This document shows positions 3,254-28,517 of a stretch of 59,430 bases of DNA, one piece after another (the first letter of the stretch is position 1; the number at the start of each line of letters is the position of its first letter). The notes below the pieces were generated by a model that saw only the letters and a program-made list of their open reading frames with translations, ran no database searches and was not told the DNA's origin. The stretch comes from Fidelibacterota bacterium (lineage in GTDB: Bacteria > Pseudomonadota > Alphaproteobacteria > Rhodospirillales > Rhodospirillaceae): positions 1 to 59,430 of the forward strand of contig CANJOI010000001.1 in the NCBI GenBank assembly GCA_947475365.1, read 5' to 3'. Made by a program: the position numbers and the translations under genes.

Positions 3254-5818
3254 CTAAAGCGTCGCTTCCACCCGTTCCATTTCGAAGCACTCGATGACGT
3301 CGCCCTTCTGGATATCCTGGTAATTGGCGAGCGCCATGCCGCATTCGTAGCCCTCGCGGACGTCTTTGACATCGTCCTTGAAGCGCTTGAGTTGCGACAG
3401 ATCGCCCTCGTGGATGACCACGTTGTCGCGCAGCAGGCGGACCTTGCAGCCGCGCTTGATGACGCCTTGCGTGACCATGCAGCCCGCGACCTTGCCGGTC
3501 TTGGTGATGTTGAACACTTCGCGGATCTCGGCGTAGCCGATGAAGTTTTCCTTGAAGGTCGGCGCCAGCATGCCGGTGAGCACCTGTCTGATGTCATCGG
3601 CCACGGCGTAGATGATCGAGTAGTAGCGGATATCGACGTTGTCGCGCTTGGCGGTTTCGCGCGCCTGGGCGTTGGCGCGGACGTTGAAGCCGATCAGGAT
3701 CGCGCCGTAGGTCTTGGCGAGCGTCACATCGGATTCGTTGATGGCGCCGACGGCGCTGTGGATCACGTTCACCTTCACGGCGTCGGTGCCGAGCTTGCTG
3801 AGCGTGCCGGCCAAGGCTTCGGCCGAACCCTGCACATCCGCCTTCACGACGACGCTGAGTTCGTTGGCGACGCCGGCTTTGATCTTGGCGAACATCTGTT
3901 CCATGGTCGACGTGCCGACGCCGGCCGCGTGTTCCTTGTCGCGGATCTTGCGGCGGCGGAACTCGGTGACTTCGCGGGCGCGGCCTTCGTCCTCGACCAC
4001 GATGAAGTCATCACCGGCCGACGGCGTGCCGCCGAAGCCGATGACTTCCACCGGCGCCGACGGCATGGCCGACTTCACCTGCTTGCCGTGTTCGTTGACC
4101 AAGGCGCGCACGCGGCCCCACTCGGCGCCGGCGACGAAAATGTCGCCCAGGCGCAGGGTGCCGCGCTGCACGAGAACCGTACCCACCGAGCCGACGCCCT
4201 TTTCCACTTTGGCTTCGATGATCGCGCCTTCGGCGGCGCGGTTCGGGTTGGCCTTGAGGTCGAGCAGTTCGGCCTGCAGCAGGATGACTTCCTCAAGCTT
4301 GTCGAGGTTGATCTTCTGCGTCGCCGACACTTCCACCGACAGCGTCTCGCCGCCGACGTCTTCCAGAACGACTTCATGATTGAGAAGGTCGGTCTTGATG
4401 CGCGCCGGATTGGCGCCGGGCTTATCGATCTTGTTGATGGCCACGATGATCGGCACTTCGGCGGCCTTGGCGTGGCGGATCGCCTCGATGGTCTGGGGCA
4501 TGATGCCGTCGTCGGCCGCGACCACCAGGATCACGATGTCAGTCACTTTGGCGCCGCGGGCGCGCATGGCGGTGAAGGCTTCGTGGCCCGGCGTATCGAT
4601 GAAAGTGATCTTCTGGCCGGCCTTTGTGCGCACCTGGTAGGCGCCGATATGCTGGGTGATGCCGCCCGCTTCGCCCGCGACGACATTGGTCGAACGGATG
4701 GCGTCGAGCAGCGAGGTTTTGCCGTGGTCGACGTGGCCCATGATGGTCACCACCGGCGGGCGGGTCGTCATCGCCTCTTCATCGTCCGGCGCGGCTTTCA
4801 GGCCTTCTTCCACCGAGCCTTCGGTGATGCGCTTCACCTTGTGGCCGTACTCCTGGGCCACCAGTTCGGCGGTGTCGGCGTCCAGCACTTCGTTGATGGT
4901 CGCCATGATGCCGAGCTTCATCAGCGATTTGATCACATTGACCGAACGCTCGGCCATGCGGTTGGACAGTTCTTGAACGGTAATCGTTTCGGGCAAAATC
5001 ACTTCGCGTACCACCTTGTCGGTGTTCATCGGTTGCTTGAGCTGGGCCTTGCGGCGTTCTTTCTCGACCGCACGGCGCATCGAGGCGATGGAACGCGAAC
5101 GTTCGACCTTGTCGTCACCTTCCAGGGCGGCGGTGATGGACAGCTTGCCCTCACGGCGGCGCGGCTCGGTACGCTTGTTGACGGCCGGCGGCTTGTGGCC
5201 GGTCTTGGGCTTGCGCGGCTTACCCTCGTCCTCTTCTTCCTCGTCGGCGACGGGACGGCGGGCGATCAATGCAGCGTCGCCGGCGACGGTTGCGGCGGCG
5301 GGGGTGGTTGCCGTGCGCACTTCAGCGGCGGGCGCGGCAGCGGGTTCCGGAGCGCGCGCACCCGGAGCGCTGGCGGGAGCCGCGGCGACCGGCGGCGCTT
5401 CCGCGGCGCGCTTGGCTTCTTCGGCGGCGCGCTTGGCGTCTTCTTCGGCTTCGCGTTTGGCGTCTTCCTCGGCCTGCTTGCGATGCTCCTCGTCCGCCTT
5501 CATGGCGTCCTGGAGCGCTTTCAGGCGGTGCGCCTTCTCGTCGTCGGTGAGGTTGCCGTGCTGGAGGGCTTCGCGCGCCTTGGCGAGCACTTCGTCGGAC
5601 TTGGTCTTCAGGGAGACGGGCGGGGCTTTGACTTCCTGCACCTTGCCGTCAGCGCCCATTTCGAACTGGCGCTTCCGCTTGCGTTCGACCTGAACGACTT
5701 TGGACCGGCCGTGCGAGAAGCTCTGGCGGACCTGACCGGATTCCACCGTCTTCTTCAGCTCCAGCTTCCCCTTGCTCAGCGTCAACGGGGCCTTAGGTTT
5801 GGTGGTATCGCTCGGCAT
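3254..5818 (-). CDS. infB: Translation initiation factor IF-2
   Basis: 854-aa ORF with a charged N-terminal region and a GTPase G-domain ([29 protein letters not shown]). Confidence 0.97.
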
Positions 5819-11663: not shown

Positions 11664-13271
11664 TTATCGTCCTTGGCGCCGCCGAAAAATAAACGCCGCC
11701 AGACCCCCAAAAGTTGCGGCGAGCAACGGCAGGATGTTGCGCAGCGTGCCGAACAGGGTGAATTCCGCCGCCGGCTGCGGGAGGGCCACGTCCAGCACGC
11801 CCTTGATCCCAAGCCCCAGTGACTCCCGGGTGCGGCCGTAGCCGTCGATCACCGCCGAGATCCCGGTATTGGCGACGCGTACCAGGGGCAGGCCCTCTTC
11901 CACCGCCCGCAGCCGCGCGGCGGCGTAATGCTGGTAAGGCCCCCAGCTCATGCCGAACCAGGCGTCATTGGTGAGGTTGAGCAGCCACCGGGGTTTGGGG
12001 CCGGTCCAGGGCGTGACCGCGCCCGAGAAGATCGCTTCGTAGCAGATCAACGGCGCGAACGGCGGCAGGCCGGGGACCGCCAGGGTCTTGAGGCCCGCGC
12101 CCTTGCTGAAATCGCCCACGCCTTCGGTGAGCTTTTTGAACGGGATCAGCCAGCGCAGCGGCATGTACTCGCCGTAGGGCACCAGATGGGTTTTGTCGTA
12201 GGTGGCTTCGATCGCGCTGGTGTCCGTCAACGCGAACAGCGAATTGTAAATCTGCACCTCGCCGTTTTCGTCACGGATGCCGCGGTCGGCGCCGGTGATG
12301 AGCAGGCCGTTCTCCGGCGCGGCCGCCGCCAGAAGGCGGCGCCCCTGGTCCGAAGCGTTAAGCGAGAACAGCGGCGGCACGGCGGCCTCGCCCCAGATGA
12401 CGGCGCTCGACCCGGCCGGCCGGTTTTCTTGCGAAAGCCGCAGGTAGTCGCGGATATGGTCGGGCCACAAATCCGGCCGCGCGCGATCCGCCTGGGAGAT
12501 GTTGCCCTGGACCAGGCGCAGTTTTATGCCCTCGACCGTCGCGTCACCGGCGCCCGTGAGGCGCACAGCGCCTCCGGCCGCGAACACGAGGAGCACGGCG
12601 GCGGGGGCGAGCGCCACGATCCAGGTGCGGCGCTCACGGAACGGCGTGCCCAGGATCGCCGGCGCGGCCGCGGCCAGGACCGTGAACAATGTCAGGCCAT
12701 AGGTGCCGATCAGCGCGGTCACCTGAATCATCGGCACCCCCACCGGCGTCATTTCTTCTGACCACACCGTGGCGATGGGATTCCAGGCGAAGCCCGTGAA
12801 CAGCCAGCCGCGGATCCATTCCACCACGGTCCAGGCGCTGGCGAAGAACACCACACGCGGCACGTAGACCGCGAAGCGCTCATAGGGCAGGTCGTCCTTG
12901 CCGGGCGGCGGAAACAGGTGCGTCACACCGCAGACCACGGCGATATACAGCGCGAAACCGGCGCTCAAGGCGGCCACGGCAGGCCAGGCGAACGCGCCGA
13001 AGGTGTCGGCGTCCACGTAGAAGGCGTTGGCGATCCAGTGAAAGCTCACCAGGAAATAGCCGAAGCCGAACGCCCAGCCCGTAGCGGTGGCGCTCCATCG
13101 CGTTTCACATCCGTCCAGCAGCCACAACAGCACCGGGAACGCCACCCAGAGCAGCGGAAAGGCCGACACCGGCGGATAGGCGACGATTGCCAACGCGCCC
13201 GTGGCGAAGGCCAGGATCAGCCGCTGCCAGGGGGTGACGGAGGACAGGCGCCCCGCGAGTCCGCCCATCAT
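11664..13271 (-). CDS. lnt: Apolipoprotein N-acyltransferase
   Basis: The track ORF (706 aa, 11664..13784) starts in an alternate frame of corC. The real start is ATGATG at 13271 (MMGGLAGRLSSVTPWQRLILAFATGALAIVAYPP...). The protein has a multi-TM N-terminus and a CN-hydrolase domain (LICYEAIF, NLTNDAWFG). Confidence 0.9.
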   Translation of the reverse strand: MMGGLAGRLSSVTPWQRLILAFATGALAIVAYPPVSAFPLLWVAFPVLLWLLDGCETRWSATATGWAFGFGYFLVSFHWIANAFYVDADTFGAFAWPAVAALSAGFALYIAVVCGVTHLFPPPGKDDLPYERFAVYVPRVVFFASAWTVVEWIRGWLFTGFAWNPIATVWSEEMTPVGVPMIQVTALIGTYGLTLFTVLAAAAPAILGTPFRERRTWIVALAPAAVLLVFAAGGAVRLTGAGDATVEGIKLRLVQGNISQADRARPDLWPDHIRDYLRLSQENRPAGSSAVIWGEAAVPPLFSLNASDQGRRLLAAAAPENGLLITGADRGIRDENGEVQIYNSLFALTDTSAIEATYDKTHLVPYGEYMPLRWLIPFKKLTEGVGDFSKGAGLKTLAVPGLPPFAPLICYEAIFSGAVTPWTGPKPRWLLNLTNDAWFGMSWGPYQHYAAARLRAVEEGLPLVRVANTGISAVIDGYGRTRESLGLGIKGVLDVALPQPAAEFTLFGTLRNILPLLAATFGGLAAFIFRRRQGR

Positions 13272-13281
13272 CTGCTGGCCG

Positions 13282-14208
13282 TCATTTGGGAGCCGGCGGG
13301 GCGGGTAAATTGCGTATGCGCAATTGCCGCACGCGGCGAGGGTCGCTCTCGATGATCTCGAACTCGATGCCGGAGTCATGTTTGACCAGGGCGCCGCGGC
13401 TCGGCACGCGCCCGCCGATACTGATGACAAGGCCGCCCAGGGTGTCGGCCTGCTCGCGCTCCTCGTCGGTGAACACATTGCCGACGCGGGCTTCGAAATC
13501 GCTGAGCGCCACGCGGGCATCGGCGAAGATGGTGCCGTCCGGACCATCGCGCATCTGGGGCTCTTCGTCGGTGTCGTGTTCGTCCTCGATCTCACCGACG
13601 ATCTGCTCGACCACATCTTCGATGGTGAGCAGTCCATCGATGCCGCCGTACTCGTCGACCACCACGGCCATGTGGGTGCGCTTGAGGCGCATCTCGAGCA
13701 GAAGGTCGAGCACCCGCACCGCCGGCGACACGAACAGCACGCTCCGCACCATGTCGAGAAGTGTGCGCTTGTGCAGCGGCGCATGGGCGACGTCGACCTG
13801 CAGGCTTTGCTGAAGCGCGAACACCGCGAGGTCCTTGATGTGGATCAGGCCCAAAATCTCGTCGAGGGTCTCGCGATAAACCGGCAGCCGGGAATGGCCG
13901 CCGCCGGTCAGGAGTTCGAGCGCTTCCGCGAGCGGGGTCGAGGCTTCGATGGCGACGATATCGGCGCGCGGCACCATGATGTCGCGGGCGGTGACGTCGC
14001 GCAGCGCCAGCACATTGGAGAGCAGCAGGCGCTCGTTGGGGTCGATGGCGGCGTCGCCGTCGGCGCTTTCCTCGATGCGCTCCTCGATCAGTTCCTCAAT
14101 GACGTCGCGCACCGCCTCGGCGTCCTCGGTCTTGGCGCCGAGCCAGCGCTTGAGCGCGCGCATGAGGCGGGGCTTTTCGCCCGACGGCCGGGAGCCGGCT
14201 TCACTCAT
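13282..14208 (-). CDS. corC: CorC/YbeX-family protein (CBS pair plus CorC_HlyC domain)
   Basis: 308-aa ORF with RDIMVPRADIVAIE, VDEYGGIDGLLTIEDVVEQIVGEIEDEHD and a C-terminal transporter-associated domain. Its ATG overlaps the ybeY stop (ATGA at 14205..14208). Confidence 0.88.
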   Translation of the reverse strand: MSEAGSRPSGEKPRLMRALKRWLGAKTEDAEAVRDVIEELIEERIEESADGDAAIDPNERLLLSNVLALRDVTARDIMVPRADIVAIEASTPLAEALELLTGGGHSRLPVYRETLDEILGLIHIKDLAVFALQQSLQVDVAHAPLHKRTLLDMVRSVLFVSPAVRVLDLLLEMRLKRTHMAVVVDEYGGIDGLLTIEDVVEQIVGEIEDEHDTDEEPQMRDGPDGTIFADARVALSDFEARVGNVFTDEEREQADTLGGLVISIGGRVPSRGALVKHDSGIEFEIIESDPRRVRQLRIRNLPAPPAPK

Positions 14209-23143: not shown

Positions 23144-26100
23144 TCAGTTGCTCGGCTTGTCGCCGGCGGCGGCGACGGCGGCCACGGCTTTGGTGATGGT
23201 ATCCGCGAGCGTGTGTTCCGCCGCGAGGCGCGCCTTGGCGGGACCGGTCCAGGATGCGGCGGCTTCGGCGGCCGCGCCGCGCAATCCCTCCATCTCCGCC
23301 ACGGCGCCGGCGAGATCGTTCTGCATCATGCGGCTCTCCGCGCGGGCGGCGATGGCCCAGGCGCTGGACCCTTCCGCGCTGCCATCGACGCGGCGGATGG
23401 TGACGAGCGCCATGACGCGGTCGAGAATGCGGCGCAGCCAGCCCGCGGTGTCGTCCGGCACAGCCGCCGCACGCACAGCAGCCGCTGCAGCCGCGTCGAA
23501 GCGTCCACGCAGGTCAGGCAGTGTCGGCAGCCCGGTGGCGGCATAGGCCGCGAAGGCGCTGTCATCAAATGATGCTCCGGCGCGGGCGGCGATGGCCTTG
23601 GTGGTTTCCAGTTCCAAGGCGAACGGCCGCCCCGCCGCCAACGCGTTTTGCCATTGGCCCAACGCCATGACATAGGCGACCGCGACGGCTTGCGAGCCAG
23701 CGGCCGAGCGCCCGGCGTTCTCCAATGCGTTCACGCGCCCGGTGAGCGACAGCACGGTGGCGGCGTCGGCGCTTTTGCCCTCCAGGGTGCTGAGGCGCTT
23801 GTTCAATTCATCCAGGCGCGCGGCGTTGCCGATGGCGGTTTCCAAGGTGGCGATGCGCGCGGTGAGCGCCGCCACCAGGCGGCCCTGGTTGGCCAAGGCA
23901 TCATCGCCCGCCGCCGGCGGTGCGGTGGCAGGCCCCGCGGCGGGCGCGGCCGGGCGCGGCGCGGCGGCTTTTTCCTCAAGGGCATGCAGGCGTGCGGTGA
24001 GCGCGGCGACGTCCTCGGTCTTCGCCGGTGGGGCTTGCGTGGCCGCTGGTTCCGGCGCGCGGCCGAACTTCGCAAGCCATGCGGGCGCGGTGAAATAGGC
24101 CCCCGCCGTCAGCAGCACCAGCAGCAGGAACAACAGTGGTGCGCGGCTGCGCCGGCGCGGCGCGGCGGCTGCCGGCGGCACATCGGGGCGGTCGCTTTCG
24201 CCGGCGGTTTCACCGCCATCGCCGAAGCTATAATTGGGGAACCGCTGCCCGCGCGCCTTGTCGTCGGCCGCGTCCTCGGCCAAGAGACGCGCCGCGCGCC
24301 CGCCGCGCAGGCTTTCGGCCGAGCGGAGCGGCGTTGGGCCCGGTGTTTCGGCGTCGTCTGGCGGAGGGCTGGCGGTGGGTTCAGAACTCATGGGCTCTAC
24401 TATATCCGATCGTGGGGCAGTTTCGGGTGCGGGAAGTGGCGGCGTAACAGGTATGTCCGGATCCGGGTCAGGTGACGCGCGGAGCGGTGGTTGTTCTTGC
24501 GGCGGCGCCTCGGCGGGAATCTCTTCCACAGGCTCTTGGACAGTGGCCCAAAATGGCCGCTGCGGCGGCGTGGCTTCGCCGGGTGGCGTGGCGAAGCGGG
24601 ATTTCAGCCATGTGCGCAGGCCGCCGCCTGACGCCTGCGGCTTTGTGTCCTGTTCGCCGTCGTCCTTCGCGGCCTCCGGCAGCGCCGTGGCCCGCGCTTT
24701 TTCGTCAGCTTCGCGCTTGGCGGCGGCACGGGCTTCGTCTTCCAGGCGTTGCTGTTCACGCTTGGCGTCCCGTTCGGCGCGGGCCTGTTCCTCGGCGATG
24801 CGCTTACGCTCGGCGTCTTCCTTGGCGGCTTGCTCAACGGCGACGCGCGCCTTTTCGTCAGCCTCGCGCTTGGCGGCGGCACGGGCTTCGTCTTCCAGGC
24901 GCTGCTGTTCACGCTTGGCTTCGCGTTCGGCGCGGGCCTGTTCCTCGGCGATGCGTTTGCGCTCCGCGTCTTCCTTGGCCGCTTGCTCACGGGCGATGCG
25001 GGCCTTTTCGTCAGCTTCGCGCTTGGCGGTGGCACGGGCTTCGTCTTCCAGACGTTGCTGTTCACGCTTGACGTCCTGTTCGGCGCGGGCCTTTTTGTCG
25101 GCTTCGCGCTGGGCGGCGGCACGGGCTTCATCCTCTTGGCGCTGCTGCTCGCGTTGGGCGTCACGTTCGGCGCGGGCCTGTTCCTCGGCGATGCGTTTGC
25201 GCTCCGCTTCTTTCCGGGCGGCCTGCGCGCGCGCGGTCCGTTCGCGCTCTTTGGCCTCTTTGCGGGCGCGTTCTTCCGCAGCTTGGGCCTCGCGCAAGGC
25301 CTGATCGCTGGCGGCCAGCGCCGCCGCTGCCGCGGCGGCTTCCGCCCGGCGTGCGGCCGCGATGGCGTCCTGTTCGGCGGCGCGCACCCGCGCCTGCTCT
25401 TCCTGCGCGCGCCGCTTCTCCTCGTCACGCGCGGCCTGCAGGCGTGCGTGTTCAGCCTCCGCCGCGCGCTGTTCCGCGAGACGCCGTGCCTCTTCGGCCG
25501 CGGCCTGCTCCTGTTTGCGGCGGCTCTCTTCGGCGCGCGCCGCGTCGCGCTCGGCTCGCGCGGCTGCGGTGCGTTCCGCCTCCTCCGCTTCCATCCGCTC
25601 GCTTAAAACGCGCTCCTGGGCGGCGAATGCGGCTTGGGCGCGTTTGCGGTCTTGCACCGAAAGCGCCAGCCGCTCACGTGCCGCCTGCGCCCGCGCGAAG
25701 CTTTCGTCGGCGGCGGCGCGCCGTGCTTCTTCCGCGGCTACGGCCAGCGCGGCTTCCGCGGCGCGCTTTGCCTTTTCTTCCGCCGCGCGCCGTTCGCGCT
25801 CAAGGCGCTCTTGTTCCGCGCGTTCACGTTCCAGTCGCTCGCGTTCTTCGCGTGCCGCGCGCTCCTTCTCCTCCGCTTCGCGTTTGGCTGTGGCGCGCGC
25901 CTCTTCTTCCAGCCGCTGGCGTTCACGCGCGGCGCGGGCCTGTTCCTCGGCGATGCGTTTGCGCTCGGCTTCTTCCTTGGCGGCCTGTTCGCGGGCGATG
26001 CGTGCTTTCTCGTCGGCTTCGCGCTTGGCGGCGGCGCGGGCTTCGTCTTCCAGGCGTTGCCGTTCACGCTGGGCTTCGCGCGCGGCGCGCGCCTGCTCCT

Positions 26101-27373
26101 CGGTCGCGCGCTTGCGTTCGGCTTCTTCCCTGGCGGCCTGTTCGCGGGCGATGCGCGCTTTCTCGTCGGCTTCGCGCTTGGCGGCGGCGTGGGCTTCGTC
26201 TTCCAGGCGCTGTTGTTCACGCTGGGCTTCGCGTTCAGCGCGGGCCTGTTCCTCGGCGATGCGCTTGCGCTCAGCTTCTTCTTTGGCAGCTTGCTCACGG
26301 GCGATGCGCGCCTTCTCGTCGGCTTCGCGCTTGGCGGCGGCGCGTGCTTCCTCCTCGCGGCGCTGCTGTTCGCGTTTGGCTTCGCGTTCAACGCGGGCCT
26401 GTTCCTCGGCGATACGTTTGCGCGCGGCTTCTTCTTTTGCGGCCTGTTCGCGCGCGGCGCGGGCGCGTTCCTTGGCCTCGCGCTCGGCGGTGGCTTTCGC
26501 CTCCCGTTCAATGCGGGCCAATTCCTCGGCGGCGCGCATGCGGGTGGCTTCCGCTTCGCGGGCGGCGCTTTCGGCTTGGCGCTGCGCTTCGGCGGCAGTT
26601 TCGCGTTCGGCCTCTGCGCGCGCCCGCTGCTCCGCGGCGGCACGCTGTTCTTCCACTTTGTCGACCAGCGCGCCGTCGAGCTGCATCGCCGCATCTTCGA
26701 GCGTGCCGCCGCTGGGAACGCTCACACCTTTGAACTTGAGCGCGCGCAAGGGCGCCGCCACCACGGGTGACGCCGCCACGGCCGTTATGGAGGCGACGGC
26801 GCTGTCGAGCTTTGCCACCTGTACCAGGGCGACGAAAGCGCGCGCTTCCTCGGCCGACAGGAACACGGCGGCGTCAAAGGCCTTATCGCGCAAGCCCGCG
26901 GTGATCCCGGCGGGCAGTGCGCTCGCGCGCCTCAGGCTGTAGAGCGGCAGGGGCCGCAAGGCGAAACCCATGTTGCCCAGGAGTGCGCCGAGATTGGTGG
27001 CAGGCCCGTTGTGGCAGGCGTGGATCAAGGCGCCGTGAGAGGGCTTCACCGTGCGTTCCGCCAGGCGCGCGAGATCGGCGGTGTCGTCCTTGGCGATCAA
27101 GACCTGTTTGAAGCCGAGCGAGGTCAGCAGCGCGGCGGTGGCCTCGCTGTCGGTGAACACAGGAAAAGTGCGCACACCGATATTGTCGGCCAGCGCCCGG
27201 GCGCCTTCGCCGCCCGTGACGACGAAGCCTTGCGCGGCGGTGAGGTTGATTTTGGGCGCGGGCAGGCGCTCCGCGGTCAGCAGGGGCGCGATCTCCACCG
27301 CGTGGCCGCGCGCCCGCAGCACCGCGGCGGTGGCGGCGGCATCCTGCGCCGGCTGTGTGATCAGAACTCGCAT
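23144..27373 (-). CDS. Giant fusion protein: uroporphyrinogen-III synthase (HemD) domain, E/R/A/K-rich repeat helix, Pro-rich linker, TM helix, coiled coil, mitofilin/Mic60-like C-terminal domain
   Basis: One uninterrupted 1409-codon ORF. Residues 1 to ~230 (MRVLITQPAQDAAATAAVLRARGHAVEIAPLL...) resemble HEM4/HemD. Residues ~238-898 are almost pure E/R/A/K/Q. Residues 899-1075 are rich in P/D/E. Residues 1079-1099 (PLLFLLLVLLTAGAYFTAPAW) form a TM helix preceded by RRRSR. Residues ~1160-1225 are heptad-like. Residues ~1235-1395 (WLRRILDRVMALVTIRRVDG...RAESRMMQNDLAGAVAEMEGLRG...W...AKARL) resemble the mitofilin domain of alphaproteobacterial Mic60. Domain calls are by eye, not by HMM. Confidence 0.8.
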   Translation of the reverse strand: MRVLITQPAQDAAATAAVLRARGHAVEIAPLLTAERLPAPKINLTAAQGFVVTGGEGARALADNIGVRTFPVFTDSEATAALLTSLGFKQVLIAKDDTADLARLAERTVKPSHGALIHACHNGPATNLGALLGNMGFALRPLPLYSLRRASALPAGITAGLRDKAFDAAVFLSAEEARAFVALVQVAKLDSAVASITAVAASPVVAAPLRALKFKGVSVPSGGTLEDAAMQLDGALVDKVEEQRAAAEQRARAEAERETAAEAQRQAESAAREAEATRMRAAEELARIEREAKATAEREAKERARAAREQAAKEEAARKRIAEEQARVEREAKREQQRREEEARAAAKREADEKARIAREQAAKEEAERKRIAEEQARAEREAQREQQRLEDEAHAAAKREADEKARIAREQAAREEAERKRATEEQARAAREAQRERQRLEDEARAAAKREADEKARIAREQAAKEEAERKRIAEEQARAARERQRLEEEARATAKREAEEKERAAREERERLERERAEQERLERERRAAEEKAKRAAEAALAVAAEEARRAAADESFARAQAARERLALSVQDRKRAQAAFAAQERVLSERMEAEEAERTAAARAERDAARAEESRRKQEQAAAEEARRLAEQRAAEAEHARLQAARDEEKRRAQEEQARVRAAEQDAIAAARRAEAAAAAAALAASDQALREAQAAEERARKEAKERERTARAQAARKEAERKRIAEEQARAERDAQREQQRQEDEARAAAQREADKKARAEQDVKREQQRLEDEARATAKREADEKARIAREQAAKEDAERKRIAEEQARAEREAKREQQRLEDEARAAAKREADEKARVAVEQAAKEDAERKRIAEEQARAERDAKREQQRLEDEARAAAKREADEKARATALPEAAKDDGEQDTKPQASGGGLRTWLKSRFATPPGEATPPQRPFWATVQEPVEEIPAEAPPQEQPPLRASPDPDPDIPVTPPLPAPETAPRSDIVEPMSSEPTASPPPDDAETPGPTPLRSAESLRGGRAARLLAEDAADDKARGQRFPNYSFGDGGETAGESDRPDVPPAAAAPRRRSRAPLLFLLLVLLTAGAYFTAPAWLAKFGRAPEPAATQAPPAKTEDVAALTARLHALEEKAAAPRPAAPAAGPATAPPAAGDDALANQGRLVAALTARIATLETAIGNAARLDELNKRLSTLEGKSADAATVLSLTGRVNALENAGRSAAGSQAVAVAYVMALGQWQNALAAGRPFALELETTKAIAARAGASFDDSAFAAYAATGLPTLPDLRGRFDAAAAAAVRAAAVPDDTAGWLRRILDRVMALVTIRRVDGSAEGSSAWAIAARAESRMMQNDLAGAVAEMEGLRGAAAEAAASWTGPAKARLAAEHTLADTITKAVAAVAAAGDKPSN
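24683..25240 (-). repeat. Coding tandem repeat array 2: about 3.5 copies of the same 153-bp unit, one copy internally truncated
   Basis: Equivalent positions were checked at 24703, 24856 and 25009 (spacing 153). A shortened copy near 25091 corresponds to the peptide junction ...READKKARAEQDVKREQQRLEDE.... The unit is highly similar to that of array 1, about 1.2 kb away in direct orientation. Confidence 0.9.
25859..26476 (-). repeat. Coding tandem repeat array 1: about 4 copies of a 153-bp (51-codon) unit
   Basis: Equivalent positions were checked at 26005, 26158 and 26311 (spacing 153). The encoded unit is IAREQAAKEEAERKRIAEEQARAEREAQREQQRLEDEARAAAKREADEKAR. Confidence 0.9.
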
Positions 27374-27464
27374 GAAGCAGCACTATGCTTATTTATAAGA
27401 GTGTTGTAGAGGCTGCGGGATAGCGGGAAAAGAGCTTTGCGCCCGCTAACCCACTGGAAATGCA

Positions 27465-28517
27465 TTGTTAGTTCTCGGCATCGAAACCAGTTGCGACGAG
27501 ACTGCCGCCGCCGTGGTGGACGGCGAGGGGAACGTGCGCGCCCAGGCGGTGTTGAGCCAGATCGAAGACCACAAGCCCTATGGCGGCATTGTCCCGGAGA
27601 TCGCCGCCCGCGCGCATCTCTCCCATCTTGACCGCCTGATCGCCAAAGCCATGAGTGACGCAAAGGTGCGCTTCGAGGATTTGAGCGCGGTGGCCGCCAC
27701 CGCCGGGCCTGGGCTGATCGGCGGCGTGATTGTCGGCGTGATGACCGCGAAAGCAATATCGATGGTGCGCGGCATCCCGTTCATCGCCGTCAATCACCTG
27801 GAAGGCCACGCGCTCACCGCGCGCTTCACCGATGGCGTTCAGTTTCCTTATCTCCTGCTGCTGGTGTCCGGCGGCCATTGCCAGATTCTGGTGGTGGAAG
27901 GCGTCGGGCGCTTCCGCCGTCTCGGCACCACCATGGACGATGCGGCGGGCGAAGCTTTCGACAAGGTGGCGAAACTGATCGGCCTTGGGTATCCGGGCGG
28001 ACCGGCCATCGAACGCGCGGCGCGGGACGGCGACCCCGCGCGCTTTACCTTTCCGCGCCCGCTCAAAGGCAGGCCGGGGTGCGACTTTTCATTTTCCGGT
28101 CTCAAGACCGCGGTGCGCCTGGCCGCCGAGGCGCTGCCCGCGATCAGCGAAAAAGACGCCGCCGATCTTGCCGCCGGATTTCAGACCGCGCTGGTGGAGT
28201 CCACCGCCGACCGCGTCGCGCGCGCCATCGCGGTGTTCCGCGCGGACTATCCAACGGGCGACACGCTGGTGGCGTCCGGGGGTGTCGCCGCCAACACCGC
28301 CTTGCGCGAAGCGCTGACAACCGTGAGCCGGAAAAACGGCCTGCGTTTTGTGGCGCCGCCGGTGGCGTTGTGCACCGACAACGCGGTGATGATCGCCTGG
28401 GCCGGCGTCGAGCGTTTGAAGCTGGGATGGGTGGACGGGCTGGATATCAAGCCCCGGCCGCGCTGGCCGCTCGATCCTGGCGCAGCGCCCGTGCGCGGCG
28501 CGGGCGTCAAAGCCTAG
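27465..28517 (+). CDS. tsaD: tRNA N6-adenosine threonylcarbamoyltransferase TsaD
   Basis: 350-aa ORF with a TTG start: [17 protein letters not shown]..., [11 protein letters not shown] and [10 protein letters not shown] motifs. Confidence 0.95.

Follow-up and report, generated by a model that had tools for sequence, protein, structure and literature searches.

We describe here a gene, written hemD::mic60, that occupies positions 23144..27373 on the minus strand of a 59,430-nucleotide stretch of DNA (contig CANJOI010000001.1, positions 1 to 59,430; this whole stretch is referred to as the window) and that joins the tetrapyrrole enzyme uroporphyrinogen-III synthase (HemD) to the membrane protein Mic60. 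The gene has an ATG start and consists of 1409 codons plus a stop codon in one stop-free open reading frame (ORF), as a first-pass annotation of this DNA had claimed without giving the strand. The two domains are separated by a giant linker that includes a 661-residue segment rich in Glu, Arg, Lys and Ala (the ER/K segment), and this giant linker is a conserved and selected feature of a whole clade. The features of the gene and its two neighbours are listed in Table 1.

Table 1. Features of the hemD::mic60 locus, in window coordinates (aa, amino acid residues of the 1409-aa product; AF2, AlphaFold2; dN/dS, ratio of non-synonymous to synonymous substitution rates; pLDDT, predicted local distance difference test; TM, transmembrane)
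Feature	Residues (aa)	Position	Strand	Basis
HemD (uroporphyrinogen-III synthase, HEM4) domain	1-237	26663..27373	-	PF02602, PDB matches, identity to L002/L004
ER/K/A-rich segment resembling a single alpha-helix (661 aa)	238-898	24680..26662	-	Composition, charge pairing, AF2, dN/dS
N-proximal 51-aa repeat array, 3.5 copies	Copy starts 307, 358, 409	25914..26456	-	Tandem Repeats Finder, alignment
C-proximal array of the same 51-aa repeat family	Copy starts 714, 794, 845	24693..25189	-	Tandem Repeats Finder
P/D/E-rich flexible juxtamembrane segment	899-1072	24158..24679	-	Composition, dN/dS
Basic-aromatic motif GGLRTWLKSRF, directly after the ER/K span	917-927	24593..24625	-	Comparison of relatives
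Conserved cytoplasmic motif RGGRAARLLAEDAADDKAR	1023-1041	24251..24307	-	Comparison of clade loci
RRRSR and single TM helix	1073-1099	24077..24157	-	Hydropathy, AF2, charge
Mic60 periplasmic helical region (coiled-coil and lipid-binding-site-like)	1100-1242	23648..24076	-	AF2, profile matches
Mitofilin domain	1243-1409	23147..23647	-	PF09731; pLDDT >90
orf52 (HemY_N and TPR), starting 2 nt after the fusion stop codon		21894..23141	-	PF07219, E 2.5e-17
tsaD, divergent upstream neighbour, 91-bp intergenic region (27374-27464)		27465..28517	+	TIGR03723, E 1.5e-122

Domains and reading frame of the fused gene

The HemD-like domain that the first-pass annotation had placed at the N-terminus was confirmed when the N-terminal 244 residues were scanned alone: HEM4 (PF02602) matched aa 14-227 (E 7.7e-21, 74.7 bits against a cutoff of 27.5), and the match covers profile positions 2-228 of 231, that is, the full-length two-lobe domain. 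A Pfam scan of the entire 1409-aa product did not detect HEM4, which was probably missed because of the composition bias of the linker, and returned Mitofilin as its sole match, while an NCBIfam scan of the whole protein gave no match. The HemD domain has weak PDB matches to the uroporphyrinogen-III synthases 3re1 and 4es6 and shares 83-86% identity with its counterparts in the related loci L002 and L004 (loci of relatives are numbered with the prefix L); as it has no signal peptide, it is expected to be cytoplasmic.

The claim of a Mic60/mitofilin C-terminus likewise held, Mitofilin (PF09731) matching aa 1243-1386 in the Pfam scan (E 1.4e-11, 44.5 bits against a cutoff of 27.4). A Mic60 profile built from 61 relatives matches PDB entry 7pv1, a Mic60 fused to Mic19 (E 9.9e-9), and also matches designed coiled coils. 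When the Mic60 model was compared with the PDB by Foldseek, all matches had E values of at least 0.3, and the Mic60 helical bundle 9qwr_A ranked 23rd (E 1.5). AF2 predicts helices in the Mic60 part at aa 1120-1137, 1158-1180 and 1184-1247. The RRRSR motif, single TM helix and ensuing periplasmic helical region that had been proposed agree with the hydropathy peak and with these AF2 helices: RRRSR occupies aa 1073-1077, the most hydrophobic 19-mer begins at aa 1078 (1078-1096), and AF2 places the TM helix at aa 1079-1095, with positive charges on its N-terminal side. By inference from RRRSR and from the position of the enzyme on the N-terminal side, the TM helix would be oriented N-in/C-out.

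The stretch preceding the membrane anchor (aa 899-1075) contains 20% Pro and evolves in a more relaxed manner than the rest of the gene, with a dN/dS of 0.32. Motifs resembling GGLRTWLKSRF, which might be an in-plane membrane-binding helix, were found in L002, L004, L007, L008 and L011, and L014 carries repeated copies of the type 'KKRNLLSALSSLF'. Further downstream, the motif RGGRAARLLAEDAADDKAR is kept in all loci of the clade except L022, where only ...D is retained; in the general form GGRAARL[LQM]AEDAAD it precedes the TM helix by 45-60 residues.

The ER/K part follows the codon usage of the rest of the gene and of its neighbours (GAA>GAG, CGC, GCC). Because the domains share one frame, the codon usage fits and the ORF is continuous in 15 related genomes, we consider the frame to be real and not an accident of GC-rich sequence. 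Two antisense ORFs opposite the ER/K region, at 24749-25606 (+) and 25634-26770 (+) and of 285 and 378 aa respectively, were rejected as genes; their GC content at third codon positions is 0.87-0.89 and a naive gene caller could pick them up. Since the codon usage of the ER/K part matches that of the gene and its neighbours, these ORFs are best seen as a by-product of E/R/A/K codons.

The ER/K segment and the linkers of the clade

As the first-pass annotation had delimited it, the region of about aa 238-898 is dominated by E, R, A, K and Q, which together account for 87% of residues (E 22.7, R 19.8, K 6.5, A 30.3, Q 7.9%), and gives way to the P/D/E-rich stretch described above. The segment contains neither Pro nor Gly; 53% of its residues are charged, E, R and K making up 49%, with a net charge of -5. 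Large hydrophobic and aromatic residues (LIVMFWY) number 43 of 661 (6.5%), or approximately one per 15-17 residues, which by our reasoning is too low for a canonical coiled-coil core. Compared with shuffled sequences, pairs of opposite charge are strongly enriched at i+4 (z = 11.0), less so at i+3 (z = 3.7), and depleted at i+5 (z = -2.4). An AF2 prediction from the single sequence gave 97% helix, arranged in four helices of 134-186 residues, with a pLDDT of 70 and a predicted template modelling score (pTM) of 0.23. Composition, i/i+4 pairing and predicted helicity thus lend support to the proposal that the segment forms a single alpha-helix (SAH), and suggest that it has the features of one.

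Tandem Repeats Finder and alignment revealed a 153-nt (51-aa) tandem repeat that forms two arrays belonging to one repeat family and that, among the lineages of the clade, is common to the window, L002 and L004 only. Despite insertions and deletions of whole 51-aa units, total protein length is 1409 aa in the window and 1407 and 1380 aa in L002 and L004. In comparisons with these two loci the dN/dS of the ER/K segment is 0.14-0.15, against 0.15-0.20 for HemD, 0.13-0.14 for Mic60 and 0.32 for the P-rich stretch, and purifying selection therefore extends to the linker helix candidate itself.

To place the gene among its relatives, one genome per species was scanned with the Mic60 part as query, which yielded 21 loci. 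Most are labelled 'Rhodospirillaceae bacterium' or are alphaproteobacterial metagenome-assembled genomes (MAGs); the others comprise five Candidatus Marinimicrobia, an uncultured bacterium and an uncultured Rhodobacterales. L003, L008, L011 and L016 are among the MAGs titled 'Candidatus Marinimicrobia bacterium' that carry this alphaproteobacterial locus; because their TsaD and Mic60 are 64-76% identical to those of Rhodospirillaceae MAGs, they look like mislabelled bins. By the Mic60 part, the closest loci are L002 (79% identity) and L004 (77%). Seventeen loci contain HemD as well as Mic60, and in 15 of these 17 the sequence from the HemD start to the Mic60 stop is one ORF of 701-1494 aa without an intervening stop, so that the suggested comparison of relatives for a stop codon between hemD and mic60 found none in these 15, and the physical fusion of the two domains is supported. 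The fusion is one 1494-aa ORF in a chromosome-level MAG record (OZ257255.1, 5.33 Mb). In L012 part of HemD lies in the Mic60 frame; four further truncated loci have a Mic60 frame that runs open as far as the end of the contig, and in the species-level relative L003 the reading frame is kept until the contig edge.

The chemistry of the linker differs among these lineages. ER/K/Ala-rich linkers of 540-890 aa occur in the window, L002, L004, L006-L009, L011, L013, L016 and partly L020, a P/E-rich linker of about 650 aa in L014, and (PE)n linkers of 80-220 aa in L015, L017, L021 and L022. Long perfect (PE)n dipeptide repeats, running to tens of copies, were noted in the linker regions of L015, L017, L019 and L021. 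Across 11 lineages the ER/K spans measure 357-670 aa, with a net charge of -5 to +4 and 0-6 Pro and Gly residues; enrichment of opposite charges at i+4 gave z values of 5.7-10.4 in nine other lineages and 3.3 in L020, and i+5 is depleted in every lineage. As the i+4 pairing also occurs in lineages that do not have the 51-aa repeat, the clade appears to keep the pattern and not the sequence. TsaD identity to the window is 65% in the (PE)n lineages, 69-71% in the P-rich or mixed ones and 73-90% in the ER/K lineages; since the (PE)n lineages are the most distant by this rough measure, the ER/K linkers look derived.

Queried exhaustively with the Mic60 part, a set of 1.84 billion cluster representatives produced 1221 matches at E <= 1e-10. 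An N-terminal HemD was found in 39 of the best 150 of these 1221 Mic60 cluster representatives; 11 of the 39 are 934-1374 aa long and the rest 562-880 aa, the shorter ones being nearly all below 775 aa with linkers of 14-160 aa. At 50% identity, the clusters with giant linkers number at least 11, and the long extension is not unique to the gene in the window. Within one cluster of more than 90% identity the members differ in length. Two of the giant clusters, MGE3475374.1 (1254 aa) and MDX2143795.1 (1374 aa), bear the NCBI name 'uroporphyrinogen-III synthase [Rhodospirillaceae bacterium]'. Automated annotation of giant HemD-Mic60 proteins is unreliable, and it matters in practice that those giant proteins which bear a database name are called just 'uroporphyrinogen-III synthase'; for the HemD-ER/K gene products of L023 and L024, likewise, no Pfam match is on record.

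Published fusions and a proposed tether

The first-pass annotation knew of no characterised HemD-Mic60 fusion, but the fusion itself is not novel: Rhodospirillales, Kiloniellales and Rhizobiales are reported to have occasional HemD-Mic60 fusions, the published fusion being described as 'membrane-anchored at its midpoint', with HemD predicted to be cytoplasmic and Mic60 periplasmic (Muñoz-Gómez et al., bioRxiv 10.1101/2022.06.14.496148). That paper makes no mention of long or low-complexity linkers, and our literature search found no other paper on the HemD-Mic60 fusion and none describing the giant linker. The fusion is therefore known and common in databases, whereas the giant SAH-like linker, as far as we found, appears to be undescribed. 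The protein of the window resembles the published fusions in its single HemD-TM-Mic60 ORF, the downstream orf52, the Rhodospirillales-like lineage and the predicted topology. A midpoint anchor, however, fits the forms of 560-770 aa, whereas here a linker of 842 aa comes first and the TM helix lies at residue 1079 of 1409. The clade of the window further differs by the additional GGRAARLxAEDAAD motif, for which a regular-expression search gave no match in any HemD-Mic60 fusion of 560-770 aa, and by the lack of an adjacent hemC.

Stand-alone Mic60 proteins of R. sphaeroides and R. palustris share the TM helix, the coiled coil, the C-terminal mitofilin domain and the orf52 partner, but have neither HemD nor a long cytoplasmic extension. 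Roles in intracytoplasmic-membrane development and an interaction with BamA are reported for stand-alone Mic60, the mic60-orf52 pair of R. sphaeroides has its own transcription start site, and eukaryotic Mic60 is reported to oligomerise, as the alphaproteobacterial protein is thought to do (bioRxiv 10.1101/2022.06.14.496148). HemX of the E. coli hemCDXY operon, cited in the same paper as a distant Mic60 relative without a mitofilin domain, is also a membrane protein encoded beside hemD and a hemY-like gene; unlike HemX, the protein of the window is a fusion with HemD and possesses a genuine mitofilin domain.

In three papers SAH domains are described as linking other domains in the manner of connectors, 'dog leashes' and constant-force springs (PMC4571873, PMC4183817, PMC5812594). 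The ER/K segment is like the SAH domains of myosin VI/X, INCENP, CAF-1 KER and drebrin in being rich in E, R and K, free of Pro and Gly and poor in hydrophobic residues, in its i/i+4 salt-bridge patterning and in its spacer or leash position between two functional domains; it differs in being bacterial, richer in Ala (30%), less charged (53%), built of 51-aa repeats, and a monomeric helix by prediction. Its 661 residues make it several times longer than well-known characterised SAH examples. Long low-complexity spacers next to a single TM anchor are also a feature of other envelope proteins, namely the (EP)n/(KP)n rod of TonB and the domain II helix of TolA. By our comparison the (PE)n linkers of L015, L017 and L021 resemble the TonB rod; the TonB and TolA spacers cross the periplasm, whereas the spacer of the window would lie on the cytoplasmic side.

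The reading that we favour, and judge somewhat probable, is that the product is a bitopic inner-membrane protein in which a long semi-rigid ER/K helix tethers cytoplasmic HemD to periplasmic Mic60. The predicted HemD enzyme would reside in the cytoplasm at the N-terminus and be followed by a charge-balanced ER/K/Ala-rich segment of about 660 residues, which would form a mostly continuous semi-rigid single alpha-helix, then by a Pro-rich, flexible stretch in which the conserved motif GGRAARLLAEDAAD lies, by one TM helix and by a periplasmic Mic60 module made up of a coiled coil and the mitofilin domain; hemD::mic60 would be co-transcribed with orf52. The helix may serve as a long leash or spacer that keeps HemD covalently at Mic60 membrane sites while allowing it to range tens of nm into the cytoplasm. 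It is from domain order, charge and composition that we infer this topology, the monomeric helical state and the tether function. As ER/K helices have a persistence length of about 15 nm, a contour length of 661 × 0.15 ≈ 99 nm corresponds to a root-mean-square end-to-end distance of about 50 nm; the span of about 100 nm proposed in the first-pass annotation consequently stands as a contour length but not as a reach, and AF2 moreover breaks the segment into four helices. The linker would evolve by gain and loss of 51-aa repeat units, with selection acting on helicity, charge balance and length while the exact sequence would not be selected. Because non-helical linkers take its place in sister lineages, a P/E-rich one of similar length in L014 and (PE)n ones in others, a role as spacer is suggested over one as a specific binding surface.

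Several observations weigh against this tether. L011 has an intact ORF of 1458 aa. Over 4377 nt (L011:6401-10777 against L023:2983-7359 and L024:2983-7359), L023 (GCA_964830305.1) and L024 (GCA_947466935.1) have 99.9% identity to L011, and the two comparisons together show eight substitutions at six distinct sites. Two of these sites are nonsense, in frame and in the linker just after the ER/K span: codon 852 reads TAA in place of CAA in both L023 and L024, and codon 812 reads TAG in place of GAG in L024. As called, the split alleles would give two products, HemD-ER/K with a length of 874 or 834 aa and a Mic60 of 452 aa whose start is an internal Met; the gene call for this Mic60 half (P0006 in L023 and L024) begins at a similarly situated Met of the linker. 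Frame changes also split L010 and L018, the two exceptions among the 17 loci with both domains, and apparently the P0002 contigs, and in L018 the HemD domain itself is broken. The covalent link has thus been lost repeatedly, and any claim of essential tethering is therefore weakened: the HemD-Mic60 link may be dispensable and Mic60 may be translatable from an internal start. A leash reaching about 50 nm, moreover, hardly localises an enzyme in a small cell, and the tether function may be weakly selected. As for the helix, AF2 interrupts it at aa ~420, ~571 and ~712, the 51-aa repeats inflate the z-scores obtained from shuffles, and the Ala content of 30% together with the less charged middle part (aa 540-700) makes helix-helix packing possible. 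At 53%, the proportion of charged residues falls below that of classical ER/K helices.

Alternatives to the tether were weighed against the same data. The linker could be an essentially neutral, repeat-driven low-complexity expansion, a disordered polyampholyte that merely joins domains which would be equally good apart. Variation within the clade in length (80-890 aa) and chemistry (ER/K, P/E, (PE)n), the gain and loss of 51-aa units, the length differences within a cluster of more than 90% identity and the nonsense and frameshift alleles in the linker would all be expected under this account; we nevertheless consider it unlikely, as the dN/dS of the ER/K segment is as low as that of the enzyme and the Mic60 domain, Pro and Gly are absent from 661 residues, net charge stays near zero in 11 lineages despite differing proportions of K, R and E, the specific i+4 pairing also occurs in lineages without the repeat of the window, and close relatives are near-constant in length despite the turnover of units. 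Less probable again is a cytoplasmic oligomerisation device, in which the ER/K/Ala region would form a coiled coil or antiparallel bundle that clusters Mic60 and/or HemD. Four long AF2 helices with short breaks do follow the pattern of a helical-hairpin bundle, Ala reaches 30%, and oligomerisation is reported for eukaryotic Mic60 and thought to apply to the alphaproteobacterial protein, but large hydrophobic residues amount to only 6.5% and form no heptad seam, the pTM of 0.23 gives no confidence in the packing, and in sister lineages the region is replaced by Pro-rich sequence that is unable to form coiled coils. The oligomerising coiled coil of characterised Mic60, furthermore, lies on the other side of the membrane from the ER/K segment.

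It is also quite improbable that two proteins are normally made, with Mic60 arising from an internal start in the region of Met995 besides or instead of the fusion and the ER/K tail belonging to a soluble HemD. The Mic60 half of the split alleles was called from a similarly placed Met, the window shares with L002, L004, L009 and L011 a Met that purine-rich codons precede (…GAAGAGCC…ATG), and a separate transcription start site serves mic60-orf52 in R. sphaeroides. The internal Met995 is, however, confined to close relatives and is not conserved across the clade, no convincing Shine-Dalgarno sequence precedes it in the window ('tagtagagcccATG'), and promoter and terminator scans inside the gene gave nothing above shuffled expectation; a frame kept open in 15 species over a linker of 2-3 kb would be hard to explain if read-through were without value. 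Of the four alternatives, only an assembly or sequencing artefact, by which hemD and mic60 were joined or the repeats inflated, is effectively excluded: although many short-read contigs of relatives break inside the linker and some assemblies show frame changes (L010 and L018), the same fused frame occurs in independent assemblies of 15 species, including the chromosome-level record OZ257255.1, with normal codon usage and with L002 and L004 at 1407 and 1380 aa.

Returning to the tether, a bolder version is put forward tentatively and as rather unlikely to hold in full: that a clade of uncultured Rhodospirillales-like bacteria keeps what may be the longest bacterial SAH (540-890 residues, 80-130 nm contour) under purifying selection as a cytoplasmic ruler or leash on Mic60, setting the distance of a tetrapyrrole enzyme or a binder of the helix to Mic60 sites, with no counterpart in MICOS, the mitochondrial system that organises contact sites and cristae, and with the nonsense alleles of natural populations representing ongoing fusion and fission. 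That haem synthesis and Mic60 sites are functionally connected is supported by the fusion, as has already been published; what is new is the conserved and selected rod, predicted at up to about 100 nm, that would lie in the cytoplasm between HemD and Mic60. Should it be a true SAH, it would be an extreme natural and bacterial example of the motif and a ready-made system in which to study how linker length affects an enzyme tethered to a membrane-shaping protein. Because, of the MICOS subunits, Mic60 alone has been traced to the alphaproteobacteria, variation in bacterial Mic60 bears on the origin of the crista-forming machinery.

Genomic context of the locus

The first-pass annotation had invoked the reported synteny of mic60 with hemC, hemD and a hemY-like gene. 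The HemY-like part of this holds, as orf52 lies directly downstream and is kept as downstream neighbour in 22 of 22 loci; hemC is adjacent neither here nor in the whole clade, unlike in the published hemC-hemD-mic60-orf52 order, and the scanned ORFs of the window yielded no hemC. Wherever a locus reaches upstream, its divergent neighbour is tsaD, and the order tsaD/fusion/orf52 is conserved. The window is an ordinary chromosomal housekeeping region that also includes truB, rbfA, infB, nusA, rimP, metK, ybeY, phoH, miaB and olsA/B-like genes, as well as tsaB, rimI, gpsA, manC, acs and polysaccharide genes.

Two further observations concern other genes of the window. The N-terminal region of IF-2 (3254-5818, minus strand) also has a short ER/K/A-rich stretch, which is common in bacterial IF-2. 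A 706-aa ORF at 11664-13784, with unusual GC content at second codon positions, reads from its translation alone as a putative Lnt-like membrane acyltransferase, the start of which is probably over-extended.

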